A DNA stretch of 64,000 nucleotides from a virus. The translations under genes and the position numbers were made by a program. The notes beneath the pieces were generated by a model that saw only the letters and a program-made list of their open reading frames with translations, ran no database searches and had not been told where the DNA came from. Below are positions 23,459 to 43,614 of the stretch, in pieces. Numbering within the stretch: the first letter of the stretch is position 1; every line of letters begins with the position of its first letter. The stretch is taken from the IMG/VR virus record IMGVR_UViG_3300038393_001317; one strand, 5' to 3'.

Positions 23459-24381
23459 GATTTGCTCCGTTTGTTGAGACCAGTTTTCAAATCGCGCACG
23501 AAGCGCTCGACCCATTCAGCCGCTTGGTCGGACGGCAAGCTGAAATGTTTGGCGGCGTACGAGACGAGCTCGTTCGCACCGGGGTTCTCGCCGACCACGC
23601 CCGTGCGGACGTACTCGGCCAATTTCTCGCGGAACTCGTGGTAGTTCCTGGGGGCCTGGCCGCGATCGAGCGACTGCATGCCCAGCGCGGCGCCGCCGGT
23701 CTTGGCGGCCGCGTCCGTTGCGTAGCTGGCCTCGAGGGCTTTCGCCAGGTCGAAGCCGTCGGCGCCGAAGCACTTCGCGAACGCGCCCATCGGCAGCGTT
23801 GCGCACTCCGGCACGTGCTGGTTCACCGGCGTCTTGCTGAAACCGATGTTGGTCCAGCGGACCTTTTGGACGATCGCCTTGCGCAGCTTGGTCGCAGGGT
23901 CGATCACGACCTTGGTCGCGGACTTGTCGATCGCGCCGCCGACCGACGGGTACCAGCGCTGCGGCGGCTGGAGCTCGGTAAGCGACGACCAGAACTCATT
24001 GGCGCGCGCGGCCGCGATGCCGTCGCCGGCGTAAATCTCGCACTTGACGAACGTCGACTTGCCGTTCTGGCGCACGTCGACCGGCCGGCCAATCTCGTAC
24101 AGGTTCGCGTCCGGGATGCCGGGCCAGCCCTTCGCCGGGTTCGGCTTGCCGATCAGCGTGTAGTGCTCGAGGTCGATGTTGCCGTAGCGCTTGAAGTACT
24201 CGGCGGACTCGGCGAGCGCCTTCGCGGCGACCACCTCGTTTTGCTGGTCCAGACCCTCGTTGCTGGCCTCGCAATACAGGAACCGGCGGCCGCCATCCGT
24301 CGACGGCGTCGCCTTCAACATCGAGCCGATGCTGATAAACGAGGGGACGGCCGCGAGCAGGCTTTCGTCGGACTGCAACAT
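23455..24381 (-). CDS. prohead (maturation) protease candidate
   Basis: 308 aa upstream of scaffold/MCP, with segments such as EASNEGLDQQNEVV and IDLEHY. Assignment is mostly positional. Confidence 0.6.
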   Translation of the reverse strand: MLQSDESLLAAVPSFISIGSMLKATPSTDGGRRFLYCEASNEGLDQQNEVVAAKALAESAEYFKRYGNIDLEHYTLIGKPNPAKGWPGIPDANLYEIGRPVDVRQNGKSTFVKCEIYAGDGIAAARANEFWSSLTELQPPQRWYPSVGGAIDKSATKVVIDPATKLRKAIVQKVRWTNIGFSKTPVNQHVPECATLPMGAFAKCFGADGFDLAKALEASYATDAAAKTGGAALGMQSLDRGQAPRNYHEFREKLAEYVRTGVVGENPGANELVSYAAKHFSLPSDQAAEWVERFVRDLKTGLNKRSKS

Positions 24382-24475: not shown

Positions 24476-24742
24476 TCAGGAGTCCGGCTCGAGGTGCGCG
24501 CGCGCCTGGGCGATGACCTGGTGCAGGCGGCCGCGCTCCTCGATCGCGTTCATGTACGTCTCCGCGGCCTCGCTGTCGCCATGCAGCGACGGGATGGTGC
24601 GGGTGTTCTCGATCGTGCGCTCGACCTCCTCGAGGCGCTTCTCGGCGGCCGCCAGGATGCGGCGCTCGTCCTCCTGGGTGCGGTGGGCCAGGGCGCCGAG
24701 CTCGCCGAGCTGCCGGCGCGGCGTGTCGATCGGGTCGTTCAT
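24476..24742 (-). CDS. hypothetical coiled-coil protein (88 aa)
   Basis: Normal charged/helical composition; start overlaps the upstream ORF stop (24739/24742). Confidence 0.7.
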   Translation of the reverse strand: MNDPIDTPRRQLGELGALAHRTQEDERRILAAAEKRLEEVERTIENTRTIPSLHGDSEAAETYMNAIEERGRLHQVIAQARAHLEPDS

Positions 24743-24921
24743 TCCGGCCTCGCAATCAGCAGGAGCTGGTGACCGCGCGGCCCGGGCATGAAGTGGTGCC
24801 GCAGGAGCTGGAGGGCGGCGCGCCCCGACAGGGCGTTGCCGGGGATGCTATTCAGGCCGTGCGTCGGCTCGCCGTACAGGGCGTACCGGGCGGCCAGCGA
24901 AATGAGGCTGATGCGGAACAT
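24739..24921 (-). CDS. hypothetical small protein (60 aa)
   Basis: Fills the gap after the 1525-aa gene and is coupled to the next ORF. Weak SD. Confidence 0.45.
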   Translation of the reverse strand: MFRISLISLAARYALYGEPTHGLNSIPGNALSGRAALQLLRHHFMPGPRGHQLLLIARPE

Positions 24922-24934
24922 GGCCCTATGTTAC

Positions 24935-27900
24935 TCAAAAAAGAGCACCAGGGGAATCCGCCTCGCGCACCTGGCGCTCGCGCAGGAACTGGGCGATGCC
25001 GGTCTCGTCCAGGCCCTCCAGGCTGGAGGTCATGAGGTCGCGCAGGCCGTATTTGCGTTGCAGGCGATCGCGGGCGCGGTGCACCTCGGGATGGTCCGGA
25101 ACGGCGTCGATCAGCTCCACGTCGTTTTCCTGGCCGGTGCGGAAAATGCGGCCGTTGCGCTGGGCGTGCGTCATGGCGGTCATCGGCGTGTCCGCCTGGT
25201 ACAGCCACTGGCCGCGCTGCACGTTCATGCCGGTCGCGCCGGCGTCGGACGCCACCAGAATGTCCGCCTGGGCCTCGCCCTGCTCCGGCTTGAACATGCG
25301 GCGCTTGCGCTCCTTCTCCTTCGGGCCGTCCTTGCCGGTGATCGTGACCACGCGATGGCCGGCCTTCTCCAGGCGCTCGGCCAGCATCTGGACCTGCTTG
25401 AGGGAGTGCGCGAACACCACGCCGGGCTTTCCCTTGCGCTCGGCCGCCTTCGCGACCAGGTCGTCGGCGATCGGGTTGTCCTCGTGCTCCATGATGGTCC
25501 GCATGACCGCGGACGACTTCATGATGCCCAGGCTTTGCTGGAGCTCCTTCGCGCGGGCCTGGTGCGCCGACTCCTCGAGGCCGTCGAATTGCTGCGGCGC
25601 GATCGCCTTCATGGCGTCCACGTCGACGCGGCCCTGGATTCGCGCGATGCGCGCCCGGGTGAAGTGACCCTCGAGCTCGGCGAGCGCCTGGCGCTGGCCG
25701 GCCGACAGCGCGAGCTTCGACTCCTTGCGGTCGGCGTGCACGTCCGGGTCGATCTTGCTCGGGAAGATGTAGCGCGCCATCTCGCGGCGCAGGGCGTCCT
25801 TCGACGCCAGGGTGTCGGCGCCGTAGCGGCGCATGAACTCGCCGCGATCGCGGTACCGCGCCGGGTCCATCTTGCGCATGAGGTCGAACACCTCGCTAGC
25901 GTCGTTCTTGACCGGGTCGCCGCTGGCCGTCACGTAGTACGGCGTCACGTCCGGATGCGACAGCGCGTCGACCACATTCGCCAGGCTCGAGTTTTCCTTG
26001 CCGGCGCGGTTGAGGGTGTTCTGGCCCTCGTCCACGTTCAGGTAGTCGTAGCTGATGCCCTCGCGCTCGAGCGTCGCCTTCATCCAGTCCTTGCGCTCGT
26101 CGTCCGACATGGCCGCCACGCGCGCGGTCATCTCGTCGGGCGAGACGCCGGCGTGCTGGGCCGCCAGGTGCATCATGTCGTCGCGGAACGACTGGTGCGT
26201 CATGACCGTGAAGTGGTTGCTCGCGTCCTTGTGGGCCTTGATGCGCTCCTCGCGGCTGGCGCCGGGCTCGATATGCCACTTGTACTTGCCGGGCTCGAGG
26301 TAGCGCAGCGCCTCGCCGGCGAACTGGCCCTGCACGATCGACGGCACCAGGAACAGGCCGCGCTTCGCCTTACCCTGGCCGTGCAGGTGCGAGTAGGACG
26401 CCAGGCCGAGCAGGGTCTTGCCGGAGCCGGTACCGAAGGCTGCGACCACGCGCTTGTTCGCGTCGATCAGCTTGACCAGGCGCTGTCGCGCGGCGTTCTT
26501 GCCGCCCGACATGGTCGGCTCCCACAGGCGCAGGGGCTGGCCGGGCTTGAAGTTGCGGCCGACGACGCCCATCATGCCGGCGAGCTGGCGCTCCGCCTCG
26601 TGGCCGATGGTGTAGCGCTCGTCGCCGGCGAGCTGGGGTTCCTGGTCGCCGGCGGCCGCGGGGGCGTCCTCGGTGGAGAAGAACCCCATCTGGGCCTGCT
26701 CCAGCGCCTCGTTTTTCTCGCGGGCGGCGTCCAGCTTGTCGGAGACCGCGCCGGCGGCGTACTTGCCGGCGGAGCGCTCGCGCAGGCTGTCCACCAGGGC
26801 GCGCTCGCGGGCCATGCGCTCCTCGCGCGCGGCCGGGTCGACGGCGTCCAGGTGGTTCAGGTTGTTGCGGATGACCGTGCGGCCCAGCTTGAGCGGCGCC
26901 CGCGGGTTCAGCTTGTTGTGCGCCTCGAGGAACGACTTCGCGACACGCGAGCGAATCAGGTCCTGCACGGCCTGGTACGCCTTTTCGTTGCCGTGCATGG
27001 CCTCGACGTACTTCGCCCAGTCCAGCGATGCGCTGCCCACCTTGGCGGCCAGCTCGTCGCGGCGCGCGCGCCAGTCGGCCCAGGCCGGGTTCTCGGTCTC
27101 CTCGCCGAACATATCGCCGACGGTCTTTTCCGGCTCCGCGGCGACGTGGTCCTCGAGCTCGCGGCGCATGTTGCCGGCGTCGGGGCTTTCCTTCGCGACG
27201 TTGCGGTAGAAGAACTCGCGCAGCGCGCGCTGGTCCTGCTGCTCGAGCTCGCCGAGCTGCTTGAACGCGGCGACGCCCTCCGGCGTTTCCGCCAGGGCGC
27301 GGTGCAGCGCGTCCACGCTCACCTGGTCGACGTTGAACTTCTGGCGGTTGATCGCCTGGCGCCCGTTCGGATGCCGGCGCTGCATGAACACGTCGGCGTA
27401 GCCGTCGAAGTCACCGGCCAGGGCTTCGGCGCGGCGCGGCTTGCCGCGGCCGTCCTTGAGCGGGGCGACGGCGTCGAGCGCCTTGCGGTACTCGTCCGCG
27501 CGATCGGCGCCGACCTTGTCGAAGAACGCCGCCGACTGAATGTCCGCGACTATGTCGCCGGGCGTGTCACCGTCGGCCGCGCGGCCGCCGATGTAATCCA
27601 GGAGCGACTGCTCGAGGTCGGCGCCAGGCGTGAAGGGCTCGGCCAGGCGCGGCGCGACGCCGGGCTTCACGTCCATGGCGAGGTCGGGCCGGCGCGCGAC
27701 GCCGATCGGGAGCCAGCCGTCCTCGTCCTGGTCGCCGCGGATGATCGCCAGGTTGCGCTGGACCTGCTCCACGTCGGCGCGGTCGATCGGCTTCGCCAGG
27801 CGATCGAGGCCGGCGCCGGTGACGGTCAGGAACGTGTTGCCGCCGGCGGTGTCCACCTGGTATTCGCCGCGCTGCAGGCCGATCGCGCGCACCTGGGTGA

Positions 27901-29512
27901 TCGCCGACTCGATCGAGCGCTTGCCCATCGAGACCTGGAATTGGTCCTTCTTGCCCTGCTTGAGCGCCACCGTCAGCGCGGCGTTCGCCTCCATCTCGCC
28001 CAGGGTCTGGCCGAGAATCTTCTGGGCGTCCACGACGGCGCGGCGCCGGCGCGCATTCATTTCCTGGGCGACTTGCAGGTCCTGCGCGGTCTCGCCCTCG
28101 CCCAGCTCGATTTCCTTCGCGGCATCCAGGAGCTCCTGCGCGCGGCCCATGGCCTCGGCGCTCGACTCCATGTAGTGGTGCAGGTGGAAGTCCTGCATGC
28201 CCTCCGTGATGCGCTGCACGTCCTCGGGCATGTCGTTGTGGATGCGGCGCGCCAGGACCTGGGCGGCGCCGGCGACGCCGAGCACGTCCACGACGCTGCG
28301 GTCGACCAGCGCCTGGCCGCCGACGGCGAGCGCCAGGCTGTTGATGCTGTTGTGCGCGCCGACGGCCACGTGCTTGCCCAGGGTCTCCTCGGGTCGATCG
28401 CCGGCCAGGCGGTTGAACTCCGACAGGAACGCGCGGGTCTGCGCGGTGCGCAGGTCGTTCGCCAGGTCCTCGGCGATCTTGGTGTCGGCCTCCGGGTCCG
28501 CGGTGTACTCGAGCACGTACGCCTTCGGCTCGGCCGTCGCCTTGTCGATCGCCGCGTTCGCCTCGCGCGCCTTCTTTTGGATTTGCTTGAGGCGCTTCGC
28601 GGCGCGAAGAATCTCCGCGGCCTGCTTCGCGTCGGCCAGGGTCGTGTCGTTCTTGGGGCCGACGGGCTCGCGAATCTTCTCGAGCTCGCCCTTGATCATC
28701 TTCGCCGTCTCGCCGCGCTTGACGGCCGCCTGGCGCTGGTCGTCGGTGAGCAGGGCGGCCTTCGCCTCCTTGATCGGCGCGACCTCCTTTTTCAGCTCCT
28801 CGTCGGTGAGGCCCGCCTTCTCGGCGCGCTCCTTGAAGTTGTTCGCGAAGCCCGTCGCGGCGCCCCCGGCGGGCGTCGGGTCCAGGTCCTCGACGCTGAT
28901 CACGTCGGGGTCCTTGGCATCGAGCGGAATCTCGCCGATGCCGGCCTCCAGGCGGGCGGCGTGATCGGCCACCAGGCGCTGGCGCTGCATCTCGACCGCC
29001 TCGGACGCGCGGCGCATGATGGTCTTGTGGTGCTCCTGGGCGGCCTTGTTGCGCGCGGCGTCGGACACGTTCGCGTACTGCTCCTCGGGGAACTCGAGGT
29101 CCTTCGGCTCCCAGCCCATGGCCTGGGCGACGGTCTGCACGAACTTGCGCTCGTGTTCGCGTTGCTGGCGCTGCACGTCCAGCTTGGCCTGCTTCTTTTT
29201 CTCGGCGATGCCGGCCTCGCGATCGCGCTTGGCCTGGATTTTCCGCTCCTCGGCTTTGGCCTTCTTTTTCTGCTCGGCCTCCGCCTTGTACTCGGACTCC
29301 TTCTTGACGCCCCGCAGCTTGAGGTAGTTCAACTTGCCGCCGGCGCCGCCAATGACGTGCGCCGAGCCGTCGGCGTTCGGCTGAATCAGGACTGGCTGAC
29401 CCTCGGAGCCGGGGCCGTTCGGGTGCACGGTAATCCAGCGCGCGCCCTCGGGGATGGCGGCCGCCTTCGCGAGCGGTTTTGCCGGCAGGAAAACGATGGG
29501 GCGATCGGCCAT
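24935..29512 (-). CDS. 1525-aa cargo-block protein with C-terminal superfamily-2 helicase
   Basis: Walker A AAFGTGSGKT, motif II NVDEGQ, helicase-C VVFAHSLKQVQMLAERLEKAGHRVVTITG...ASDAGATGMN...HAQRNGRIFRTGQ (about nt 25088-26515). Long coiled-coil/unknown N-terminus starts ..RWITVHPNGPGSEGQPVLIQ. Confidence 0.85.
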   Translation of the reverse strand: MADRPIVFLPAKPLAKAAAIPEGARWITVHPNGPGSEGQPVLIQPNADGSAHVIGGAGGKLNYLKLRGVKKESEYKAEAEQKKKAKAEERKIQAKRDREAGIAEKKKQAKLDVQRQQREHERKFVQTVAQAMGWEPKDLEFPEEQYANVSDAARNKAAQEHHKTIMRRASEAVEMQRQRLVADHAARLEAGIGEIPLDAKDPDVISVEDLDPTPAGGAATGFANNFKERAEKAGLTDEELKKEVAPIKEAKAALLTDDQRQAAVKRGETAKMIKGELEKIREPVGPKNDTTLADAKQAAEILRAAKRLKQIQKKAREANAAIDKATAEPKAYVLEYTADPEADTKIAEDLANDLRTAQTRAFLSEFNRLAGDRPEETLGKHVAVGAHNSINSLALAVGGQALVDRSVVDVLGVAGAAQVLARRIHNDMPEDVQRITEGMQDFHLHHYMESSAEAMGRAQELLDAAKEIELGEGETAQDLQVAQEMNARRRRAVVDAQKILGQTLGEMEANAALTVALKQGKKDQFQVSMGKRSIESAITQVRAIGLQRGEYQVDTAGGNTFLTVTGAGLDRLAKPIDRADVEQVQRNLAIIRGDQDEDGWLPIGVARRPDLAMDVKPGVAPRLAEPFTPGADLEQSLLDYIGGRAADGDTPGDIVADIQSAAFFDKVGADRADEYRKALDAVAPLKDGRGKPRRAEALAGDFDGYADVFMQRRHPNGRQAINRQKFNVDQVSVDALHRALAETPEGVAAFKQLGELEQQDQRALREFFYRNVAKESPDAGNMRRELEDHVAAEPEKTVGDMFGEETENPAWADWRARRDELAAKVGSASLDWAKYVEAMHGNEKAYQAVQDLIRSRVAKSFLEAHNKLNPRAPLKLGRTVIRNNLNHLDAVDPAAREERMARERALVDSLRERSAGKYAAGAVSDKLDAAREKNEALEQAQMGFFSTEDAPAAAGDQEPQLAGDERYTIGHEAERQLAGMMGVVGRNFKPGQPLRLWEPTMSGGKNAARQRLVKLIDANKRVVAAFGTGSGKTLLGLASYSHLHGQGKAKRGLFLVPSIVQGQFAGEALRYLEPGKYKWHIEPGASREERIKAHKDASNHFTVMTHQSFRDDMMHLAAQHAGVSPDEMTARVAAMSDDERKDWMKATLEREGISYDYLNVDEGQNTLNRAGKENSSLANVVDALSHPDVTPYYVTASGDPVKNDASEVFDLMRKMDPARYRDRGEFMRRYGADTLASKDALRREMARYIFPSKIDPDVHADRKESKLALSAGQRQALAELEGHFTRARIARIQGRVDVDAMKAIAPQQFDGLEESAHQARAKELQQSLGIMKSSAVMRTIMEHEDNPIADDLVAKAAERKGKPGVVFAHSLKQVQMLAERLEKAGHRVVTITGKDGPKEKERKRRMFKPEQGEAQADILVASDAGATGMNVQRGQWLYQADTPMTAMTHAQRNGRIFRTGQENDVELIDAVPDHPEVHRARDRLQRKYGLRDLMTSSLEGLDETGIAQFLRERQVREADSPGALF

Positions 29513-29518
29513 CGCCTC

Positions 29519-29534
29519 ATCGTAGGGTCACGAC
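29519..29534 (-). promoter_or_regulatory. GTCGTGAC-CC-TACGAT box, 6 nt before ATG 29512
   Basis: - strand GTCGTGACCCTACGATGAGGCGATG. Confidence 0.55.
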
Positions 29535-29538
29535 GGCG

Positions 29539-30096
29539 TCAGTCCTTTTTCGCCATCAGGCGGCGCAGCGAGCCCTTCGCCGGCGCCGTGGACGACAGGA
29601 ACTGGTCGCGGTGCTTGATCGCCTCGCGGGCATGGTCAGGGTGCACGCCCTGGCTCGTGAAATGCTCGTGCATCTCCTCGTCGGAGCTGCTTTCGTCGTT
29701 GGCGAGCGATTGCTCCATGAGCTCGAGGTGATCGTCCGGCACCTCGGACTTCGGCTTGCCCTGGGCGCGCTCGAGGTTCTTTGCGGCGTCGGCGGCCGGG
29801 TCGGCCGGCTTCGGGATGCCACGGGCGCCCTTCACGTCGTCGTGCGGCACGTCATGCTGGTTGCCGTCCTCGCCGTGCACGTGATGGACCACGGACTTGC
29901 CGTCGCGGTGACCCATGTAGATGCCCAGGCCGTTCTTGCCCTTCTTTTCCGGGTGCGGGAAGAACACATGCTGGCCCGGCTTGTAGCCCTTCGGGTGCGC
30001 TTGCAGGTTCACCAGGCGCTCGTGGCCGGTGACAGTCGTCCCGTCCTTCTTGGTGTACGGGCCGACGTGCGACTTGAGCAGAACGATGGGCTTCAT
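29539..30096 (-). CDS. His-rich 185-aa cargo-block protein with shared N-terminal leader
   Basis: MKPIVLLKSHVGPYTKKDGTTVTGHERL...; GGAG SD. Confidence 0.75.
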   Translation of the reverse strand: MKPIVLLKSHVGPYTKKDGTTVTGHERLVNLQAHPKGYKPGQHVFFPHPEKKGKNGLGIYMGHRDGKSVVHHVHGEDGNQHDVPHDDVKGARGIPKPADPAADAAKNLERAQGKPKSEVPDDHLELMEQSLANDESSSDEEMHEHFTSQGVHPDHAREAIKHRDQFLSSTAPAKGSLRRLMAKKD

Positions 30097-30106
30097 GGTG
30101 ACTCCG

Positions 30107-30122
30107 ATTGTTTGGTCACGAC
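30107..30122 (-). promoter_or_regulatory. GTCGTGAC-CA-AACAAT box, overlaps TGA of upstream gene
   Basis: - strand GTCGTGACCAAACAATCGGAGTCACCATG. Confidence 0.45.
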
Positions 30123-30445
30123 AGCCCGGCGTCCGGGTCCTGGAGCGTGTAGACCTCGCCGTGCGCGTCGGTGACGGTCGGCCGGCCCAGGTTGAACGTG
30201 GCGTTCTGGCGGTACTCCTGGGCGGCCGCCTGCAGCGCGGCGTCCAGCGACGTGACGGCCTCGGGCGCCATGCGCGCCATGGCGTCGGGCTCCTCGTAGT
30301 CGCCGAGCAGGTGCAGGTTCTCGCGGGTGTAGAACTGCTTGAGGAGCGCCTTCACGAACCACCAGTAGGGGCCGAAATTGCGGTAGCGCCGCGGGTCCTG
30401 TTGCAGGAGCTGGAGCGTGCTTTCGGCGAATGCGCGGGCGTTCAT
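30116..30445 (-). CDS. hypothetical 109-aa protein
   Basis: ATGA overlap with the 2157-aa gene; normal composition (..FGPYWWFVKALLKQFYTRENLHLLGDYEEPD..). Confidence 0.7.
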   Translation of the reverse strand: MNARAFAESTLQLLQQDPRRYRNFGPYWWFVKALLKQFYTRENLHLLGDYEEPDAMARMAPEAVTSLDAALQAAAQEYRQNATFNLGRPTVTDAHGEVYTLQDPDAGLS

Positions 30446-36915: not shown

Positions 36916-36941
36916 GGGCGCGCCTGGTCCGGGTGCCCTAG

Positions 36942-36957
36942 ATCATCCTGTCACGAT
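36942..36957 (-). promoter_or_regulatory. ATCGTGAC-AG-GATGAT box variant, overlaps TGA of upstream gene
   Basis: - strand ATCGTGACAGGATGATCTAGG..., 34 nt before ATG 36915. Confidence 0.35.
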
Positions 36958-38846
36958 TGCGTGCGGTCGCTATCCTCGCGCTCGCCGGAGACCGACGCCC
37001 GGGCCTGCACCTCGGGGTCATCGAACCTGGCGGCCCAGATCGGCGCCAGGCGATCGAGGGCGCCGGCGTCGTGTTCGCGGAAACCGGCATCGAACGCGCC
37101 GTCGACGGCGTCCTCGGGACCGTTGTACGTGTAGTGCGCGCGCAACCCGCGCTCATCGAACACCTGGTAGCGGTACTTGCCCTCGTGGCTGGCGTCGGGC
37201 ATCAGCACGGCCCACTGCTTGCCGTTCTGGTGCCGCAGCTCGAAGCCGTCGCCGAACTGGCGGAAGTGCTCACGCACGGCCTCGCGCTGGGGATTGCCGC
37301 GGCGCTCGTACGGCGCCACGGGATGGCCCTCGCGGACGTAGCCGGCGACCATCGCCTTGAGCATGCCCGGCTTGTCGGCCGTCGCGCGGACCTTTTCCAC
37401 AAACTTGTCCACAGGCATGGTTACCACCTCTCCCAGGAACCGCGGGTCGTCGTAGTGCATGAGGTAGGCCGCGCGGGCCTGCTTTTCCGACAGGAAGCCG
37501 GCCATGACCTTGTCCTCGTCGTAGCGGCGCCAGGCCGACGCGGAAGGCGCGCCGTGCTTGCGTTGCCGCACGATGTAGACGTTCGGAGCGAAGGCCAGCG
37601 ACGGCCCCAGGTACACGTCGACCTCGTCGCCGTCGGCGCCCATCGAGTCCTCGAAGAACCCGTAGTCGTAGCGCATCTTGGTCGCGCCGCCAGGCCAGCG
37701 GCGGGTCGAGCCGGCCGGGTTTTCCACACGAACGGTGAGCCCGCGCCACTGCACGCGGGGCTTGAAGTACTCGCCCGACTTCGCCTGGGCGGCCGTCGGC
37801 GGCGTCCAGCCCTGAGCGAACAGGTCGACGTGGTGCACGGGCGCCGTGAAGAACCCGACCTGCTCGTCGCCGTCGTCCAGGATGGCCTTCGCCAGCACGG
37901 GCTCGAGGTCGCCGCCGTACTTCTTGGGCACGACGCGCGACAGAATCTCCTTGATCTTGTCGAACTTGGTCGGGCCCGACAGGCCGCCGAGCTCGTGCAG
38001 CTTCGAGCGCATCACGTTCGCGTCCGCGGTCACGCCCGGCACGTCGGAGACGTAGCACTCGCGAATGACCTCCATGCGCTCCTCGAACCGCGGCGAGCTC
38101 ACCGCGCCCAGGATATGCAGGCGGTCGGGCAGGTAGTCGCCGGACAGGAGCTCGCGCAGGTCCGCGCCGCTCATGGCGGCCGCGGCCGACGGGATGCCGA
38201 CGACGAAGTCGGTACCGCCCAGCGCCGCGGCGACGCGATCGTAGGCTTCGCGCTGGTTCAGCGGCCCGCGCTGGAAGGGGACGATGACCTCGTGTCCGGC
38301 CTCCATCCACTCCTGGATTTGCTCGGCGTGCTCCTCGATCAGCTCGAGCGTCGCGACCTGGTCGCCGATCACGTCCGGCGCCACCATCATGAGCAGGTTG
38401 CGGTACCGGTACGGCGTCTCCTCGCAGATGCGGCGCGACAGCTCCGAGTACTTCGCGAACACCGGCCCGAAGTTGATGCGCGCGTTCTCCGGCTTGCCGG
38501 CGCGCATCGCCGCCTTGAACGCATTGAAGGCGCCGGAGTCCACGAACACCGGCTTTTTCTCGCGGCGGATGGCTTCGGCGATGCGGTCCATGCCGAACGA
38601 CGACAGCTCGCCGATTTCCGTGCCCAGGCCGGCCGGCGACTCGATCGCCGCCTCCATGTCGCGCCGGCGACTCATGCCGGACGCGTACGGGAACGGCGTC
38701 ACCTGGTCGCCGCCGGTGGGCTCGCGCAGCTCGAGCGACACCTGGGCGGGCTTCGCTGACGGCCGCTTGTCGTCGTGCGCGCGCACCACGGTGCCGTCCT
38801 TCTTGGTGTAGCCCTTGACGTGGGCCTTCGCCAACACAATCAGCAT
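36951..38846 (-). CDS. 631-aa cargo-block protein: leader + possible TGT/DpdA-like barrel + inorganic-pyrophosphatase-like domain
   Basis: Start trimmed to ATG 38846 (AAGGA SD), giving MLIVLAKAHVKGYTKKDGTVVRAHDDKRP. PVFVDSGAFNAF resembles the DSGxF motif of transglycosylases. VENPAGSTRR...YDYGFFEDSMGADGDEVDVYLGP resembles the family I PPase YGF..DGDP.DV motif. Confidence 0.8.
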   Translation of the reverse strand: MLIVLAKAHVKGYTKKDGTVVRAHDDKRPSAKPAQVSLELREPTGGDQVTPFPYASGMSRRRDMEAAIESPAGLGTEIGELSSFGMDRIAEAIRREKKPVFVDSGAFNAFKAAMRAGKPENARINFGPVFAKYSELSRRICEETPYRYRNLLMMVAPDVIGDQVATLELIEEHAEQIQEWMEAGHEVIVPFQRGPLNQREAYDRVAAALGGTDFVVGIPSAAAAMSGADLRELLSGDYLPDRLHILGAVSSPRFEERMEVIRECYVSDVPGVTADANVMRSKLHELGGLSGPTKFDKIKEILSRVVPKKYGGDLEPVLAKAILDDGDEQVGFFTAPVHHVDLFAQGWTPPTAAQAKSGEYFKPRVQWRGLTVRVENPAGSTRRWPGGATKMRYDYGFFEDSMGADGDEVDVYLGPSLAFAPNVYIVRQRKHGAPSASAWRRYDEDKVMAGFLSEKQARAAYLMHYDDPRFLGEVVTMPVDKFVEKVRATADKPGMLKAMVAGYVREGHPVAPYERRGNPQREAVREHFRQFGDGFELRHQNGKQWAVLMPDASHEGKYRYQVFDERGLRAHYTYNGPEDAVDGAFDAGFREHDAGALDRLAPIWAARFDDPEVQARASVSGEREDSDRTQS

Positions 38847-40012
38847 GGTCCGTCCTTCTCGCCGAACGCGCCGGCCGGCAGCTTCCACTGGTCCGGCGGC
38901 ACGACGATCGGCCCCGTCCAGGTCTTGGAATTGCCCAGCGCCGCCACCTCGGGCTGGTCGATCGCCGCCTGGTACGCGCGGCCCTTGCCGGCGCGCGTCA
39001 TCAGGTCCTCCTTGCGGTGGATGGTCACGCCGAACTCGCGCTCGCGCTGCGCCACCTTGCCGGTCTCGTTCGGGTACAGCTTGTGGTTCGTCGCAATCTG
39101 ATTCGGGCCGGCGAAGATGCAATTCCGGCACGACAGGCGGCCGTAGCCGAGCTGATACGACGGGTGCGGCACGACGCCGTGCTTGCGCATCACGTCCCAC
39201 ACCTGGGCCTCACTCCAGCCGTGCACCGGCCGGTAGTGGTCGACGTGGCGCGTCGAGCTGTGCGCGCGATCGGGCTCGAACGCCTTGTAGTTCGCGCGGT
39301 TGGAGCTCTCCTCGGCGCGCTCGCCGGTCACGATCAGCGTGCGCTTGCCGGTGAACCGTTCCTGGTTCCGGACGGCCGCGGCCATCACGTCGACCTTGAG
39401 GGCGCCGCTGCACCAGCGCGTCGTGAGGTTGGCGGACTGCTGGGGGAATTTCCTGCGCGTGCCCAGCGGTCCATGTTCGCCGCCAGCGCGCCCGCGGGTT
39501 CCGTCCGGCTTCTCGAAGATGACCGGCGCGGTGCGCTGGTTCTCGCGCAGCATCTCGCGCTCGAAGCCGCCCTCGCGCCAGGAGAAGTAAATCGGGACGC
39601 CCAGGGCCTCCGCGATCTTCCGGCAGTAGTCTTTGGTGATCGGCCAGTCCATGAAGGACGCGCCCTCACCGTCAATGTCGTGATGGTGCAGCTCGATCTT
39701 CGCCGGCGGCACGCCGTTCTCGAGGAGCGCCAGGACGCAGGCGATGCTGTCCTTGCCGCCGCTGAATCCGACCAGGACCTTGTCGTAGCTGGCGAGGTCG
39801 GGCCCGGGCGCGATCGCGACCGCGGAGCCGTGAGCTGAGATGGAAAACACCTTGGGCGCATGCTCCTCGAACAGGTCGCGCTGCTTCGCCTGGTCGGCGG
39901 TCACGGCCGGCGGCGGCCGCGGCGTCGGGCGCTTGTCCTGGTGCGGCGCCACCGCGGTGCCGTCGCGCTTGACGTAGCCCTTCACGTGGGTCTTGAGCAG
40001 GAGCACGGTCAT
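38840..40012 (-). CDS. PP-loop ATPase / PAPS-reductase-like protein with shared leader
   Basis: Start trimmed to ATG 40012 (ATGA overlap with MuF stop), giving MTVLLLKTHVKGYVKRDGTAVAPHQDKRP. PP-loop VLVGFSGGKDSIA. Later TTRWCSGALK and SCRNCIF. Confidence 0.8.
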   Translation of the reverse strand: MTVLLLKTHVKGYVKRDGTAVAPHQDKRPTPRPPPAVTADQAKQRDLFEEHAPKVFSISAHGSAVAIAPGPDLASYDKVLVGFSGGKDSIACVLALLENGVPPAKIELHHHDIDGEGASFMDWPITKDYCRKIAEALGVPIYFSWREGGFEREMLRENQRTAPVIFEKPDGTRGRAGGEHGPLGTRRKFPQQSANLTTRWCSGALKVDVMAAAVRNQERFTGKRTLIVTGERAEESSNRANYKAFEPDRAHSSTRHVDHYRPVHGWSEAQVWDVMRKHGVVPHPSYQLGYGRLSCRNCIFAGPNQIATNHKLYPNETGKVAQREREFGVTIHRKEDLMTRAGKGRAYQAAIDQPEVAALGNSKTWTGPIVVPPDQWKLPAGAFGEKDGPC

Positions 40013-41157
40013 TTGGACCCCAGCGTGTTGCGCAGCCACTCGGCGAACTTCGGGTCGTCGCCGGCCTGCTCGGCGATCGTCGGAACCCAGCGGCCGCGGC
40101 AGTGCGGGTGCTGCGTTCCTGCAGCCGGCCACCACAGCTCGTGCGGCTCGCGCTCGATCAACAGGCCGCCCAGGCGCTTGTGCAGCGCCGCGCTCCGGCC
40201 GACGTTCGTCTTGCCGGGCCAAATGTCGGTCTGGCCGTTCTTGTGAATGTCGCCGGCGCCGACGACGTTCATGACCCGCCCGTCAATCGTGCGGCAAAAC
40301 TTACACGCGCCCTTGTACTGCTCGATGCGCTTCACGCGCGCGCCGTGCGGCAGGCTGGCGATGTAGCCCTGGTTCTGGGCCTCGACGGTTTCGGTCACGG
40401 CGATGCGACGCCAGTCGCGATTGAGCTGCGCGAACTGGTCGCCGAGCTTGGTCTCGAGCGCGCCGGCGAGCGGAGCGTCGCCCAGGTGCACGGCATTGAC
40501 GTGTTGTGCGATCGTCTGGCGCATGCGGTGCCGCACGTCGTTCGAGACCTCGCGCACGTTCTCGGCCGTGCTGGCGATCGCGTACTCGAGGCCGGCGCGC
40601 TGCGGCCGCGTGAACGGGAACAGGTCGATCGCCGCCTGGGCGGTGAGCGGCAGCGCCGCGATGACCTGGTCGGCCTGGGCCGCGGTGACCTGGTCCATGT
40701 TGGCCTGCACGCGGCCCATGATCGTCGCGCGCGTCGCCAGCCACTCGGCCTCCGCGCGCATGTCGTCCGCCGGCAGGTAGCGCTGCGTCAGCCAGTCGAC
40801 CATCATCATGTGGTCCTCGAGGGTCCACTCGCCAGGCGGCAGGTGCTCGAGGTACAGCTTCACCAGGTCCAGCTCGCCGCGCGACCAGCGCTCCATGACG
40901 CCGGCGGGCCGCGCGACGCGGTCCATACCGGGTCGATGCCGGGCGCCGTCGGACCACGCCTTGAGCTCGCGACGGAACGCCTCGAGTCGATCGAGACCGC
41001 GTTGCGTGAACAGCTCCACCAGGCGCGCGACGAACGGGTTGTCGACGGGGAGCCAAATGTCCTCGCCGTTGTGGTCGTGGATGGCCTTGTAGATCAGGTT
41101 GAGCGCCATGTCCGTCTGTTCGGCGGATAGCGGCTCGAGGTCGACAAACAGGCCCAT
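40009..41157 (-). CDS. MuF / SPP1 gp7-like minor head protein
   Basis: RIAVTETVEAQNQGY, CKFCRTIDGRV and GTQHPHCRGRW match the Mu F-family pattern as I know it. Confidence 0.75.
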   Translation of the reverse strand: MGLFVDLEPLSAEQTDMALNLIYKAIHDHNGEDIWLPVDNPFVARLVELFTQRGLDRLEAFRRELKAWSDGARHRPGMDRVARPAGVMERWSRGELDLVKLYLEHLPPGEWTLEDHMMMVDWLTQRYLPADDMRAEAEWLATRATIMGRVQANMDQVTAAQADQVIAALPLTAQAAIDLFPFTRPQRAGLEYAIASTAENVREVSNDVRHRMRQTIAQHVNAVHLGDAPLAGALETKLGDQFAQLNRDWRRIAVTETVEAQNQGYIASLPHGARVKRIEQYKGACKFCRTIDGRVMNVVGAGDIHKNGQTDIWPGKTNVGRSAALHKRLGGLLIEREPHELWWPAAGTQHPHCRGRWVPTIAEQAGDDPKFAEWLRNTLGSK

Positions 41158-41163
41158 CTAGCG

Positions 41164-41179
41164 ATCATCGAGTCACGAC
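41164..41179 (-). promoter_or_regulatory. GTCGTGAC-TC-GATGAT box, 6 nt before ATG 41157
   Basis: - strand TTTTCGTTTGTCGTGACTCGATGATCGCTAGATG, directly after a terminator. Confidence 0.55.
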
Positions 41180-41182
41180 AAA

Positions 41183-41212
41183 CGAAAAGCCGGAGCAGTC
41201 GCCCGCTCCGGC
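41183..41212 (-). terminator. intrinsic terminator
   Basis: - strand GCCGGAGC-GGGCGACT-GCTCCGGC followed by TTTTCGTTT. Confidence 0.65.
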
Positions 41213-41387
41213 CTTCCGGTTAGGCCCCCGTCTACCGCGAGCCCCGAAGCCCCGCAGGAAAGGACGCCGCCTACCCCTAGACGACGCGATCGTGACCTAA
41301 CTGCGGCCTTTATTTCCCCAATAGAAGCCGCTCAGGGTCGCAACAGCCAAGTGATGAACACCCGCCACGCTTCCGGCTTGCGCCGGC
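41183..41387 (-). ncRNA. candidate ~190-200-nt ncRNA (box at 41394-41409 to terminator at 41183-41212)
   Basis: Promoter-like box and terminator bracket a segment with no ORF of 60 codons or more on either strand. GC-rich hairpins. No family recognised. Confidence 0.35.
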
Positions 41388-41393
41388 GCGCGT

Positions 41394-41409
41394 AGTGTGG
41401 GCTCACGAC
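41394..41409 (-). promoter_or_regulatory. GTCGTGAG-CC-CACACT box variant with no ORF downstream
   Basis: - strand GCGGCGTTTTTTCGTCGTGAGCCCACACTACGCG. Confidence 0.4.
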
Positions 41410-41410
41410 G

Positions 41411-41434
41411 AAAAAACGCCGCGGCGTTGCGGCG
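41411..41434 (-). terminator. intrinsic terminator
   Basis: - strand CGCCGC-AACGCC-GCGGCG followed by TTTTTT. Confidence 0.55.
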
Positions 41435-41513
41435 CGCGGCGTGCTTCGGTGTCAGGGGAGGCGAAACCCGGGGAGCTCACATGGGGCAGTGGACTTCAAC
41501 TTAGGAGGAGACA

Positions 41514-41675
41514 ATGGCCGGTGCCGGCGCCAACCCGACACACTCCCCGGGGTTCTCGAACTCTCACGACAGCGGCCGCCTGGCGACTGTCGTGAGAGCT
41601 CGCACTCTCACGGCCGGGTACGTCTCCGGCGCGGGGCTTTCACCGCTCGTGATGCCTGTCGCCAGGTTCCCCTAG
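41514..41675 (+). CDS. possible 53-codon + strand ORF with ideal RBS (below track cutoff)
   Basis: AGGAGG-AGACA-ATG giving MAGAGANPTHSPGFSNSHDSGRLATVVRARTLTAGYVSGAGLSPLVMPVARFP, with fairly G/C-rich third positions. It spans the palindromes and has no recognisable + promoter. Confidence 0.2.
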   Translation: MAGAGANPTHSPGFSNSHDSGRLATVVRARTLTAGYVSGAGLSPLVMPVARFP

Positions 41676-41869
41676 CGCACTGGCTTTGTCGGAATCAACC
41701 GGAACGGGCGCCAACTAGCCCTCGGAGTCATCCGACTCGCCACCGCGACAGGTTCGGCAGGGAGCCGGAATCACCTCGCATTTTTGGCAGAGCCTCGGGA
41801 CCGTTCGCTGTCGGTATGCGTCCCCGATGAAGTTAGACCCGGCTGTCACCCCGGGCCCCTCGCGCTTTC

Positions 41870-42115
41870 CTACTCGGCCGCCGAAGCGACCGGAGCTTTG
41901 TCTTTTTCGGCGCCGTCGGCCGGCTCACCCATCAGCTCCTTGGCTTCCGCCTCGCTGATTTCGTGACCCCAGTCGACGCCCTTGTCCTTGCTGCCCATGT
42001 AGGGCACGAACTCGCCCTTCGACGGGCTCCAAACCTCGACCGGGTTCCCGCGAGCGGGACCGCGGAACAGCGCGCCCTCGTTCTCGATGTAGACCATGTT
42101 CGGGTTCTCGTTCAC
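41870..42115 (-). CDS. 81-aa protein translationally coupled to the RelA/SpoT-like gene (possible immunity/antitoxin)
   Basis: GTG start in a GTGA overlap with the upstream stop (42112-42115); acidic, normal composition. Confidence 0.6.
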   Translation of the reverse strand: MNENPNMVYIENEGALFRGPARGNPVEVWSPSKGEFVPYMGSKDKGVDWGHEISEAEAKELMGEPADGAEKDKAPVASAAE

Positions 42116-43614
42116 TTTGCTTTCCTAACCAACATGATCATTTTCGATGAAGTCTGGGATTTTTGCAAGGGCCGCTCGTCGCTTTTTTGCGACGCGCCCG
42201 GCTTGCCGTCCTTGCCGGCGGGTTTCGCCTCCGGCTGAGCGCCGGCCGTGGCCTGGGCCCAGGCTTTGCCGTACAGGTCCTTCTGCTCTTTCAGCGCCTC
42301 GTAGAACTTGGTGTGGTCCTCGTCGGACCAGGCGTCCGTGGGCGCCGGCTCGTTGTACTTCGCGCGCAGCGATCGACACACGCCGTAGGCATGGTGACCG
42401 TGGTCTTTCGCCAGGGTCATCGCCTTCACATGCACCTGGAGCTCGGCGAGCATGCCGTTGGGCAGCTTCACGATCGTCATTGCGTCGCGGTAGCCCTCGC
42501 TGGTCGGCTCCGCGAACCGGTCCTTGGGTTGCTGCGCCAGCTCGACGCCGGACTCTTTCAGCTTGGCGAGCGCCGTTTTCACGTCCGCCATCGTCGGCAC
42601 GCTGATCGTCGCGCGGACAATGTCGCGGAGCTGCGACCAGTCGCCGTCGTAGTCGGCCATGACCTTTTCCTTCGCGCGCGACTCGCTTTTCAGCGGCGCC
42701 ACGAACACGAAGCCCTGCTCGCTGGCCCAGTCCTCGGGCGTGAGGTCGTCGGGCCGCTTGCCCTCGACCAGGCCCATGGACTTCGCGATGCCGGACAGTT
42801 GCTCCTTGAACTGGTTCAGGCCCTCGGTGCCGTGCTTGACCAGGTCCTCCCAGGTCTTGTGCGGCTGGTTCACCTTCTTGGGCAGCTTCGCGGTCTCGGC
42901 CTGGTCGAACACGGCGTCGCCCTTCGCCGGCGGCTCACCGGCGTCCGCGGCCGGCCGCGCCTCGTGCGGCGAGCTCGTCGGCTTGCCGCCGCCTTCCCAG
43001 TGGTGCGTCACGGCGCCGTGGCGGACGCGATGCTCGCCGCCGGCGTCGTCCTTCACGGTGACGCCATGCTGGCCGGCGGCCGTCACCTGGCCGTGCCCGC
43101 GGTGCGCGCCGTTCACGAAGCCGACATGCCGGCCGGGTTGCGCCGGCGCGGCCGCCTGGTCGGTGCTGACCCAGCGCTGCGTCTGCACGCCGTTCTTGTC
43201 GGTGACCTGCTTCTTGACCAGGCCCGGTCGGTTCGCGAGCGGCCCGCCCTTGAACAGGAGCACGGGGCGGCGCGGGTCAAAGGCTTTCGCGATCACGAGC
43301 GGGTCCTCTTTTGCCTCGTTGGGCGTTGCGACGTAGCGGCGCCGGCCGGCCTGGTCCTGGAGGAGCATGCCGTCCTCGCCCTGGTCGATGATTTGGCCGC
43401 GGATGGCGACGCGCGACTTGTGGCCCAGGACCTTGTCCCAGGTGATCTTGTGGTGGGCGCCGTCAATCTCGCCGGTGACGCCATGCTTGCCGTGCGCGGC
43501 GACGCGGCACGTGCACGGCTGGCCCTCGTGGTGGACGTACAGCTCGTCGCCGACCTCCACACCAGGCCGGCGCTCCGGCTCCTTCTGGGTCTTGCCCGGG
43601 GCCTTCGGCGTCAT
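42112..43614 (-). CDS. 500-aa protein with C-terminal RelA/SpoT (RSH) nucleotidyltransferase-like domain
   Basis: PLKSESRAKEKV...LRDIVRATISV...SEGYRDAMTIVKLPNGMLAELQVHVKAMTLAKDHGHHAY (about nt 42280-42852). N-terminus has two HG(K/Q)HGVTG-type repeats. ATGA overlap with portal stop. Confidence 0.75.
   Translation of the reverse strand: MTPKAPGKTQKEPERRPGVEVGDELYVHHEGQPCTCRVAAHGKHGVTGEIDGAHHKITWDKVLGHKSRVAIRGQIIDQGEDGMLLQDQAGRRRYVATPNEAKEDPLVIAKAFDPRRPVLLFKGGPLANRPGLVKKQVTDKNGVQTQRWVSTDQAAAPAQPGRHVGFVNGAHRGHGQVTAAGQHGVTVKDDAGGEHRVRHGAVTHHWEGGGKPTSSPHEARPAADAGEPPAKGDAVFDQAETAKLPKKVNQPHKTWEDLVKHGTEGLNQFKEQLSGIAKSMGLVEGKRPDDLTPEDWASEQGFVFVAPLKSESRAKEKVMADYDGDWSQLRDIVRATISVPTMADVKTALAKLKESGVELAQQPKDRFAEPTSEGYRDAMTIVKLPNGMLAELQVHVKAMTLAKDHGHHAYGVCRSLRAKYNEPAPTDAWSDEDHTKFYEALKEQKDLYGKAWAQATAGAQPEAKPAGKDGKPGASQKSDERPLQKSQTSSKMIMLVRKAK

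Follow-up and report, generated by a model that had tools for sequence, protein, structure and literature searches.

We analyzed a 64-kb stretch of phage DNA (IMG/VR record IMGVR_UViG_3300038393_001317; the window in what follows), 68% G+C and with genes mainly on the minus strand, in which a long run of enzyme genes lies between the genes for the portal and the prohead protease. Several of the encoded proteins carry a common peptide of ~25–30 aa, here called the leader. Judging from sequence, we think it probable that this portal–protease interval is a variable loading bay, whose products would be targeted to the capsid, processed by the prohead protease and injected as cargo together with the DNA. 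We prefer this reading because both homology (to DarB and Ulx of phage P1, and to a portal carrying an InPase fusion) and the comparative context support the idea of an injected arsenal. The initial annotation of this DNA had already proposed such an arsenal; the DarB/Ulx homology, the polyvalent-protein domains and the leader bear it out, while the novelty of its composition and its single operon had been overstated. A broader proposal, that many phage lineages use the leader as a portable signal by which proteins are loaded into capsids and processed by the protease, is advanced here only tentatively.

The portal–protease interval and its putative cargo genes

In the window, 19,233 nt on the minus strand separate the portal gene from the protease gene. 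Both flanks of the 18.7-kb enzyme block that had been annotated between them were confirmed. The enzyme run is real, although its end has to be moved to position 24476 to take in both of the small ORFs that close it. All of the listed ORFs are present on the minus strand, with a coding-type G+C content at third codon positions (GC3) of 0.85–0.95. Features of the block and of the adjoining head genes are as follows.

43611–45368, minus strand: portal gene, 585 aa (Pfam Phage_portal 3.4e-22, phrog_12 1e-43), the upstream border
42112–43614, minus strand: RSH500, a RelA/SpoT-like (RSH) cargo protein of 500 aa; its gene overlaps the portal stop by 4 nt
42244–42903 (residues 238–457), minus strand: RelA/SpoT-type synthetase domain of RSH500 (Pfam, PDB and AlphaFold2 (AF2) model)
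41870–42115, minus strand: 81-aa ORF, coupled to the RSH500 stop by a GTGA overlap
40009–41157, minus strand: 382-aa MuF-like minor head protein, the sole portal–protease gene in minimal relatives
38840–40012, minus strand: PAPS390, a leader-tagged PP-loop/PAPS-reductase-like enzyme of 390 aa (Pfam PAPS_reduct 1.2e-10)
36951–38846, minus strand: InPase631, a three-module cargo protein of 631 aa
38751–38846, minus strand: N-terminal leader of InPase631
about 37902–38693, minus strand: TIM-barrel domain of InPase631 with FVDSGAF (AF2 model)
37392–37790, minus strand: InPase domain of InPase631 (PF18823, 7e-31)
37290–37373, minus strand: second leader copy of InPase631, GMLK↓AMVAGYVREGHPVAPYERRG (arrows mark the candidate cut discussed below), after the InPase domain and before a C-terminal domain of ~110 aa
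30442–36915, minus strand: DarB2157, 2157 aa (phrog_10089 'DarB-like antirestriction' 3e-106)
35167–35751, minus strand: N6-adenine methylase domain of DarB2157 (Pfam N6_Mtase, Eco57I)
32221–33768, minus strand: SNF2 helicase of DarB2157 (Pfam SNF2-rel_dom, Helicase_C)
30116–30445, minus strand: Ulx homologue, 109 aa (phrog_1629 'Ulx-like anti-restriction' 1.7e-14; P1 Ulx by blastp 1.2e-5)
29539–30096, minus strand: His185, a His-rich, leader-tagged protein of 185 aa starting MKPIVLLK↓SHVGPYTKKDGTTVTGH
24935–29512, minus strand: Hel1525, a helicase protein of 1525 aa (phrog_62 5e-243)
25133–26485, minus strand: C-terminal SF2 helicase core of Hel1525 (Helicase_C 1e-10, ResIII, SNF2)
24476–24921, minus strand: two small ORFs of 60 aa and 88 aa, the end of the block before the protease
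23455–24381, minus strand: prohead protease gene (phrog_1028 4e-36), the downstream border
22754–23458, minus strand: scaffold gene, following the protease gene
21207–22712, minus strand: major capsid protein gene (phrog_752 4e-94), following the scaffold gene

A search of IMG/VR recovered 56 related loci (labelled L001 and so on), and the comparison of the interval among related phages, which the initial annotation had suggested, revealed minimal and expanded forms. In the minimal relatives (fHe-Yen8-01, Dolphis, L031, L033, L039, L058 and L060) the gap measures 1,456–2,127 nt and holds one gene, for a minor head protein of ~380 aa; in other relatives it ranges from 3.9 to 16.9 kb. The gap of the window is the largest complete example recovered, many of the compared loci ending at their 10-kb flanks. 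Because gap sizes run from 1.5–2.1 kb upward, the interval is, by this comparison of loci, an expansion hot spot. In the expanded relatives cargo genes have been inserted before as well as after that for the minor head protein, and their content varies.

The source phage is a ~98-kb myovirus; a protein identical to RSH500 is encoded on a 98,168-bp JGI metagenome contig and was also found in a Logan assembly. Of the cultured phages, the closest is Bordetella phage vB_BbrM_PHB04 (Phabquatrovirus, 94 kb), which shares ~76% DNA identity with the window over the DarB-like and helicase genes. Other members of the clade include the Pseudomonas phages Dolphis, Jeremy and Touem01, Aeromonas phage ST4, Yersinia phage fHe-Yen8-01 and Morganella phage Mecenats66. 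The cargo block is common to PHB04 and about 40 metagenomic relatives. Its composition had been thought to be without a described precedent, a view that does not hold, since PHB04, a published phage, and dozens of IMG/VR contigs have the same gene order.

Profile and structure searches, proposed initially as a check of the domain calls, upheld most of them and left two, MuF and TGT, as suggestive only. The methyltransferase and SNF2 helicase called in the 2157-aa protein were supported both by Pfam and by collinearity with P1 DarB: blastp aligned DarB2157 with P1 DarB at 27–32% identity in three collinear blocks (E 2e-45, 2e-35 and 7e-24). On these alignments we regard DarB2157 as a true DarB homologue. 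The 109-aa ORF that follows is real and had been left unassigned; as the matches listed above indicate, it is a Ulx homologue. It overlaps the DarB stop by 4 nt, and the order darB then ulx is that of P1. In searches with tblastn and phmmer, P1 DarA, Hdf, DdrA and DdrB found nothing better than E 0.18 in the window, although remote homologues may have escaped these searches.

Helicase_C and ResIII matches likewise sustained the SF2 helicase called in Hel1525, where about 1000 aa of N-terminal sequence without a domain assignment precede the SF2 core. Hel1525 is found in many clade members, also where DarB is lacking, and a DEAD/Helicase_C gene encoding 1529 aa lies near the portal in an unrelated contig (L065). 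No match to His185 was detected in Pfam, PHROG or NCBIfam; homologues occur in L028, L038 and L043. Searches of domain-family libraries gave no family matches for the two small ORFs, the longer of which (88 aa) matches PHB04 gp023 and proteins of L029, L043, L049 and L051 and is conserved just upstream of the protease.

InPase631 had been annotated as a protein with TGT-like and PPase-like motifs. The second part of this call stands, in the form of the InPase domain, the best solved relative of which is a portal with a C-terminal InPase fusion (PDB 9b41_L, 1.2e-11). The first module is a confidently modelled TIM barrel (AF2 predicted local distance difference test score (pLDDT) 84, predicted template-modelling score 0.82) for which neither Pfam nor the PDB, the latter also searched with a profile, gave a sequence match. 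Foldseek placed TGT as the top family (E 1.3e-4), with a template-modelling score of only ~0.37 and with dehydroquinase and aldolase barrels scoring close. The assignment of the modelled barrel as TGT-like is thus only suggestive. Its FVDSGAF motif is invariant in 40 sequences; elsewhere the module stands alone or, at the corresponding genomic place in a clade member, is joined to Acb1, an anti-CBASS nuclease.

For PAPS390 the domain initially named and its PP-loop motif, SGGKDS at residue 84, were retained; what changed is the gene start, now set at position 40012 to give 390 aa, where it overlaps the stop of the MuF-like gene (ATGA). The protein matches phrog_424 (3.6e-36) and, below threshold, NCBIfam DndC and APS reductase; a PDB sequence search returned nothing useful. 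Among the loci examined, PAPS390 is present only in the window and in its closest relative, L005.

The 382-aa protein had been called MuF/SPP1 gp7-like. Homologues were found by tblastn in PHB04, Dolphis, Jeremy, Touem01, ST4, fHe-Yen8-01, Mecenats66 and Thermus phages, labelled by their depositors 'particle associated protein' (fHe-Yen8-01) or 'minor head protein' (Thermus phages). Residues T255, E256, C285, C288 and H350-P351-x-C353-R354-G355 are invariant, and the resulting T-E...C..C...H-P-x-C-R-G pattern is MuF-like. The window protein matches Phage_min_cap2 below the cutoff (E 0.065), and among 33 homologues seven match Phage_min_cap2 (best 0.0024) and two Phage_Mu_F (0.024), all of them sub-threshold. 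An hhalign comparison with SPP1 gp7 was weak (E 0.09), aligning the TE...DG region, and a PDB search with the profile of the protein gave nothing useful. A conserved minor head protein after the portal is thus supported, while its membership of the MuF family, for which no match exceeds threshold, is only suggested by the residue pattern.

The leader, a candidate protease site and a shared promoter-like motif

The consensus of the leader is hhhLK[AST]HVxGYT[KR]KDGTxVxxH. A leader common to the N-termini of the cargo proteins had been noted initially. In its full form it heads three window proteins (MTVLLLKTHVKGYVKRDGTAVAPH in PAPS390, 39917–40012; MLIVLAKAHVKGYTKKDGTVVRAH; MKPIVLLKSHVGPYTKKDGTTVTGH), but DarB2157 carries a variant, MIILFQK↓SQLALFDTPVRVATHVRKDGVVIPEH (36781–36915), in which both halves are parted by an insert (MIILFQKSQ...HVRKDGVVIPEH), and the N-terminus of Hel1525 has the first half only (RPIVFLPAKPLAK↓A). 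InPase631 also has an internal copy, after its InPase domain, and RSH500 a degenerate internal copy within a segment disordered in the AF2 model. All five leader copies of the window fall within the portal–protease interval.

In relatives, the leader heads HD phosphohydrolases, InPase proteins, DarB-like proteins and small uncharacterized proteins. At the same position some relatives encode the same modules fused as polyvalent proteins with ART-PolyVal, LPD1 and RadC, and there the leader lies between domains: L006 has the order InPase, leader, leader, ART-PolyVal, and a fused protein of L045 has leader, TIM barrel, InPase, leader and, further on, RadC. A profile made from three window copies was used in an exhaustive HMMER search of 1.84 billion representative proteins, which gave 771 clusters at E<=1e-3 and 48 at E<=1e-10. 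In the best 150 of the 771 clusters the leader was N-terminal in 101, internal in 86 and both in 41. Pfam domains in the best matches included InPase (28), ART-PolyVal (13), NUDIX (4) and Acb1 (3), with PBECR3, ddrB-ParB, Zeta toxin, RadC, LPD3, kinase, nucleotidyltransferase and GNAT among the others. The top match is a 1874-aa protein combining PBECR3, ART, InPase and LPD3; on its unrelated 60-kb contig the gene adjoins those for a terminase, a portal–PBECR3 fusion and a 1529-aa helicase. Pfam has no model for the leader motif, the paper that described polyvalent proteins mentions no linker or N-terminal motif (PMC5512222), and the shared leader appears to be undescribed so far.

Several further observations concern the leader. 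Anti-defence domains are leader-tagged in head-module positions, namely Acb1 with a TIM-barrel module (L066, 8001–9554) and an AcrIF11-like ADP-ribosyltransferase within the 1874-aa protein (L065, 7594–13218), which suggests that counter-defences of the Acb1 and AcrIF11-like types are delivered pre-made. The hairpin that forms the second half of the leader also builds small bacterial proteins with signal peptides that consist of VKGYTKKDGTxV repeats, and one leader-bearing protein matched Pfam PBCV_basic_adap as well; the KDGT hairpin may go back to an old basic adaptor motif of general use. A search with a 46-aa leader alignment, in which 38 candidates were scored, returned small secreted VKGYTKKDGT-repeat proteins; these were discarded, as they share the hairpin half only and are unrelated to cargo. 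Identity of the leader with the signal of P1 DarB was likewise rejected, the N-terminus of P1 DarB having no similarity to it.

RSH500 begins with an N-terminal beta domain (residues 1–110). An internal junction that reads VIAK↓A..VLLFK↓G..KKQVTDKNGVQTQRWV leads to a second beta domain, which is followed by the RelA/SpoT-type synthetase domain. Its match to Pfam RelA_SpoT is borderline (26.9 bits, cutoff 27). In the PDB, the type VI effector Tas1 gave the best sequence match (5.3e-6) and Rel the next (0.017). An AF2 model built from 42 homologues has pLDDT >94 over residues 238–457, and Foldseek aligned it with Tas1 (2.3e-8), then SAS1/2, RelP, Rel, RelA and CapRel, all with probability 1.00. 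K309, K317, D331, R334, G374, Y375, R376, E391 and Q393 are invariant in the 42 homologues and align with the catalytic motifs of Rel and Tas1 (ATP-basic, D-x-x-R, G-Y-R/Q and E-x-Q). Predicted fold and motifs together confirm RSH500, which had been called RelA/SpoT-like, as a Tas1-like RelA/SpoT synthetase.

A beta-rich domain is formed by the first ~110 residues of the post-portal protein (43285–43614 in the window, minus strand). Most expanded clade members have it, either alone as an ORF of 100–130 aa or with other C-terminal domains (L035, L037, L043, L046–L049 and L051). A polymorphic cargo protein may use this N-domain for docking.

The GTGA overlap with the RSH gene bears out the coupling of the 81-aa ORF noted initially. 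Across loci, the RSH domain and this ORF occurred together in 13, the RSH domain only in 6, the ORF only in 1 and neither in 35 (Fisher 2e-7, without correction for phylogeny); in the six RSH-only loci a small ORF still follows the RSH gene. The 81-aa ORF had no family match in Pfam, PHROG or NCBIfam and is a candidate immunity, antitoxin or chaperone partner of RSH500.

Such a pair could also be a self-contained toxSAS toxin–antitoxin module for superinfection exclusion or host shut-off rather than a packaged effector. toxSAS modules occur on phages and prophages, CapRel is among the fold matches of RSH500, its closest structure is a toxin crystallized with its immunity protein, and the coupled partner co-varies with the RSH domain. 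We nevertheless hold this explanation to be somewhat unlikely, given that a leader-like junction containing cut-like sites links the RSH domain to an N-domain found after the portal throughout the clade, that the reuse of this N-domain alone or with other C-terminal domains is the pattern of polymorphic delivered effectors, and that fusions of RelA/SpoT with MuF and with polyvalent proteins are on record (PMC5512222). The toxSAS and packaging readings are also compatible, as the producer cell could be shielded by the partner as long as the toxin awaits packaging.

A motif of the form h-x-K↓S/A/G recurs in the head proteins of this phage, and the first half of the leader, hhhLK↓A/S/T, conforms to it. 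The scaffold of the window contains eight such sites (TLAK↓S, TLTK↓S, ELVK↓A, ALTK↓S, AMIK↓S, TLAK↓G, FMLK↓A and KVAK↓A); the last scaffold site, EEFMLK↓AHSAYDQKLIDG, is similar to the leader. In 18 scaffold homologues of ~30% identity, 130 motif sites were counted where shuffling predicts 18.8, a 6.9-fold enrichment, and their positions are conserved; the protease itself is enriched 5.1-fold. Every capsid protein homologue has one site, ELQK↓ALQASNYQTD, about 33–45 residues from its start. Because of the enrichment in scaffold and protease, the conserved capsid site and the fit of the first half of the leader, we infer that h-x-K↓S/A/G is the consensus of the maturation protease and that the cargo would be processed there. 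Within the cargo, the only three sites of InPase631 (residues 5–8, 318–321 and 495–498) coincide with module borders, four of the five sites in RSH500 lie in AF2-disordered segments, and an internal leader usually follows M/L-x-K↓S/A (PAMIK↓A, PMAK↓S). The prohead protease has no PDB relative by sequence, and the mature N-terminus of the homologous phi812-type capsid protein was not found in the literature. Capsid proteins of the A511/phi812 type may likewise be cut after Lys, a point that was given no weight here.

Cargo and head genes also share one control element, since the same motif, GTCGTGAC, precedes both. It occurs 11 times in the window, against 4.5 expected, and always on the minus (coding) strand (positions 742, 9913, 24403, 29534, 30122, 41179, 45390, 49114, 49570, 50207 and 57688), with an extended form GTCGTGAC-N3-ACnAT. 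Five genes, namely those for the portal, minor head protein, helicase and protease and one that starts at ~727, have the motif at a fixed distance of 14 nt upstream of their ATG, and none of these five ATGs has a Shine–Dalgarno sequence, which suggests a phage-specific promoter giving leaderless or near-leaderless mRNAs. The copy of the helicase gene is at 29527–29534 and that of His185 at 30115–30122. The motifs divide the block into the units portal–RSH–81-aa ORF; minor head protein–PAPS390–InPase631–DarB2157–Ulx; His185; and helicase with the small ORFs. Translational coupling of the block had been claimed. Six of the 11 gene junctions do overlap, by 4–7 nt, but the remainder are gaps of 13–35 nt, three of them with the promoter-like motif; three internal motifs and several gaps rule out one translationally coupled operon, and at least four units are present.

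The genes of the block might instead encode ordinary cytoplasmic enzymes of DNA modification, repair or nucleotide metabolism, accumulated in a recombination-tolerant gap of a late operon and acting, unpackaged, in the producer cell; the shared peptide would then be a common nucleic-acid-binding or oligomerization hairpin. The methylase, the helicases, the PP-loop enzyme and the TIM barrel all have folds of nucleic-acid or nucleotide enzymes, the window encodes other methylases outside the block (19105–20544 and 58091–59251), and the KDGT hairpin recurs in unrelated small bacterial proteins. This explanation is unlikely when set against the cargo itself: homologues of DarB and Ulx were shown to be virion-borne in P1, and InPase, ART-PolyVal, PBECR and LPD domains typify polyvalent proteins linked to virion genes. 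It also has to contend with the confinement of the leader copies of the window to the head module, with the match between the first half of the leader and a motif hyper-enriched in scaffold and protease, and with the minimal relatives, which show that the block genes are dispensable for replication and assembly.

Least probable of the alternatives is that the leader is a signal for capsid targeting or assembly docking only, its likeness to h-x-K↓S/A/G being coincidental and the cargo uncut or cut elsewhere, so that fused versions would stay intact like the virion RNA polymerase of N4. The targeting signal of P1 DarB is not known to be cleaved (PMC9024508), neither MPTase nor another dedicated processing peptidase is present, an N-terminal cut would take off merely 7–9 residues, and the protease has no PDB sequence relative, so its specificity cannot be read from homology; yet a 6.9-fold enrichment at scaffold positions conserved at ~30% identity is a classic signature of maturation sites, sites fall at cargo domain borders and in disordered linkers, and the last scaffold site is leader-like. 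Each of these three alternatives explains less of the evidence than a variable loading bay does.

Several points weigh against the loading-bay reading as well. The abundance of the motif in scaffolds could stem from a structural repeat and not from cleavage. A cut after the Lys at position 7–9 would remove a tiny peptide and leave the KDGT hairpin in place; therefore targeting and cleavage may be separate functions, or the N-terminal copy may stay uncut. The second half of the leader (GYTKKDGTxV) is repeated in small secreted bacterial proteins too and, taken alone, is a generic basic hairpin. P1 loads DarB by means of DarA and Hdf, which have no homologues in the window. The sole proteomic annotation found, that of fHe-Yen8-01, concerns a relative without the cargo. 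Finally, GTCGTGAC also precedes non-structural genes at 49–58 kb, and late timing is thus unproven.

With these points in mind, the loading-bay model can be set out as follows. Cargo and head-morphogenesis genes would be expressed together, under the control of one promoter-like motif, and the leader would direct the cargo into the assembling prohead. There the prohead protease would cut within the first half of the leader, at the type of site by which it would also cut the scaffold, trim the capsid protein and part the modules of the fused polyvalent versions. The processed enzymes would leave the capsid together with the DNA and, early in infection, could methylate or shield that DNA, perturb nucleotide signalling and hydrolyse pyrophosphate or nucleotides.

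The RNA zone and neighbouring genes

The ORF-free, structured region of about 710 nt described initially was recovered as a 712-nt zone between the 81-aa ORF and the minor head protein gene.

41158–41869, minus strand: ORF-free, structured RNA zone, 712 nt
41609–41657, minus strand: conserved two-hairpin element, ~45 nt, GCGGTGAAAGCCCGCGCCGGAGACGTACCCGG, 88–94% conserved
about 41560–41600, minus strand: perfect 12-bp hairpin within the zone
41416–41435, minus strand: terminator-like hairpin, directly before the promoter-like GTCGTGAG
41402–41409, minus strand: promoter-like GTCGTGAG within the zone
41183–41400, minus strand: candidate small RNA (sRNA) of ~220 nt, between GTCGTGAG and the terminator hairpin
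41183–41218, minus strand: terminator-like 16-bp hairpin, directly before the next GTCGTGAC motif

The candidate sRNA unit folds with z = -3.57 relative to shuffled sequence, and its 3' part of ~160 nt is near-identical to L005. The two-hairpin element keeps its level of conservation in phages whose proteins are only 55–60% identical to those of the window; it comprises two 4-bp hairpins, with compensatory changes at two pairs. It was also found in L006 (3958–4005), L028 (8470–8511), L032 (4060–4109), L014 (7519–7562), L011 (5968–5999), L010 (2991–3022) and L030 (9796–9830). It is absent from the nearest relative, L005, and matches no Rfam family.

At the position of this zone, often upstream of the minor head gene, relatives carry tRNA genes and a permuted (two-piece) transfer-messenger RNA (tmRNA; Rfam RF04321, 93–106 bits), for which ARAGORN gave the tags ANDSSFLMAANA, VNANDSTYLVRAAA and ANDDYIRAAA. 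Such RNA genes were noted at 6676–7096 in L011, 4260–4510 in L006, 8374–8758 in L012 and 39904–40275 in L001. Rfam searches of the ORF-free region and of the whole window, together with ARAGORN, detected no tRNA, tmRNA or other Rfam match. The window has lost the tRNA and tmRNA genes or never had them.

Just downstream of the capsid protein gene are two genes with nothing comparable at this place in PHB04: one (19105–20544, minus strand) encodes a 479-aa protein in which a methyltransferase dependent on S-adenosylmethionine (SAM) is fused to an MptE-like/DUF115 domain, as in Maf-type glycosyltransferases, and the other (20598–21122, minus strand) a low-complexity protein of 174 aa. Both proteins may serve in virion modification or decoration. 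The possibility that the former ORF encodes the capsid protein was ruled out by its methyltransferase and MptE-like domains and by the identification of the capsid protein at 21207–22712. A further methylase outside the block is encoded at 58091–59251. Between a tail-fibre-like gene and the head-proximal genes lies an ORF of 1959 aa (12475–18354, minus strand; GC3 0.87), rich in Ala, Gly, Thr, Val and Ser and with internal repeats; it is absent from PHB04 and had no Pfam or PHROG match.

Comparison with known systems

Proteins injected along with the DNA act before phage gene expression and so decide the outcome against restriction, CBASS-type and similar defences. To our knowledge, few injected cargos are known beyond those of T4, P1, N4 and the giant phages, and a general means of recognizing them is lacking. 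If the interpretation given here is correct, the leader would mark hundreds of injected families (InPase, ART-PolyVal, Acb1, NUDIX, PBECR, kinases, the Tas1-like RSH and the PP-loop/TGT-like pair), and virion-delivered anti-defence effectors could be catalogued across metagenomes from sequence alone. It would also account for the splitting of multi-domain polyvalent proteins that have no in-built peptidase, and would provide a short tag for loading chosen proteins into phage heads, a use to which the signals of P1 DarB and T4 IPIII have already been put. The locus itself adds a predicted Tas1-like nucleotide pyrophosphokinase and a PP-loop/TGT-like pair to the candidate delivered enzymes.

In P1, the N-terminal 30 aa of DarB suffice for capsid targeting (PMC9024508). 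The window resembles the Dar system of P1 in having a methylase and helicase protein of ~2200 aa with ulx directly after it, and in both phages the darB–ulx pair adjoins the portal and prohead-protease genes. In contrast to P1, the window has no DarA, Hdf, DdrA or DdrB homologues, and the N-terminus of its DarB is unrelated to that of P1 DarB and about 300 aa longer. Whereas the P1 workers found no signal common to the Dar proteins, several of the window cargos share one, and the window adds an RSH protein, InPase, a PP-loop enzyme and a second helicase.

The polyvalent proteins described by Iyer, Burroughs, Anand, de Souza and Aravind in 2017, in which InPase and RelA/SpoT are catalogued as phage domains (PMC5512222), are similar in their InPase, RelA/SpoT and N6A-methylase plus SNF2 modules and in their MuF neighbourhood, to which relatives of the window add ART-PolyVal, LPD1, RadC and PBECR3. 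Their genes, too, lie among virion genes, and stand-alone versions of the domains were acknowledged in the 2017 paper. Cargo proteins with at least two domains (InPase631, DarB2157 and RSH500) are all encoded between portal and protease in the window, but its modules are mostly split into separate genes. Pfam searches found no MPTase or other peptidase domain in the cargo proteins; MPTase is common, though not universal, in polyvalent proteins. Further differences are that a leader or junction peptide marks the module borders in the window and its relatives, and that the PAPS-reductase-like and TIM-barrel modules do not appear in the text of the 2017 paper.

The T4 internal proteins have a capsid-targeting sequence (PMC9024508), and the ejection proteins of SPN3US a propeptide (PMC10052503, PMC7411985). 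As in T4 and in the phiKZ/SPN3US group, unrelated cargos of the window share a short N-terminal peptide. In these phages the peptide ends at the prohead-protease consensus and the proteins are ejected with the DNA, while the corresponding site in the window is deduced from motif enrichment alone. The prohead proteases of T4 and phiKZ cleave after Glu; the putative cut in the window would follow Lys. The tag of the window is also longer, one of its halves is a conserved beta-hairpin, and internal copies serve again as domain junctions.

With MuF polymorphic toxins and Tas1/toxSAS systems the interval shares a head-associated N-terminal part joined to a variable C-terminal domain of toxin type, an RSH domain nearest to Tas1, and a small downstream partner that resembles an immunity gene or antitoxin. 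The carrier in the window, unlike that of MuF toxins, is a separate post-portal domain of ~110 aa rather than MuF, and the minor head protein is free of a toxin.

PHB04 gp023–gp035 have the same order as the window, with 53–71% protein identity: portal, RSH-like gp034, small gp033, minor head gp030, InPase gp028, methylase gp027, Ulx-like gp026, helicase gp025 and protease gp022. PHB04 differs in having leader-tagged HD phosphohydrolase and NinI-like phosphatase genes at the site of the RNA zone, and in lacking the PP-loop gene, the TIM-barrel module and the His-rich protein. In the accessible part of the literature citing PHB04 we found no discussion of the block as virion cargo.

Altogether, virion-borne arsenals, polyvalent proteins, DarB and Ulx, the shared targeting peptides of T4 and the propeptide-bearing ejection proteins of giant phages are already known. 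What appears to be new is the widespread leader or junction module, its coincidence with the putative protease site and the fused-and-split architecture that it marks, together with apparently new cargo types: a Tas1-like RSH protein with its partner ORF, a PP-loop enzyme and a TGT-like barrel.

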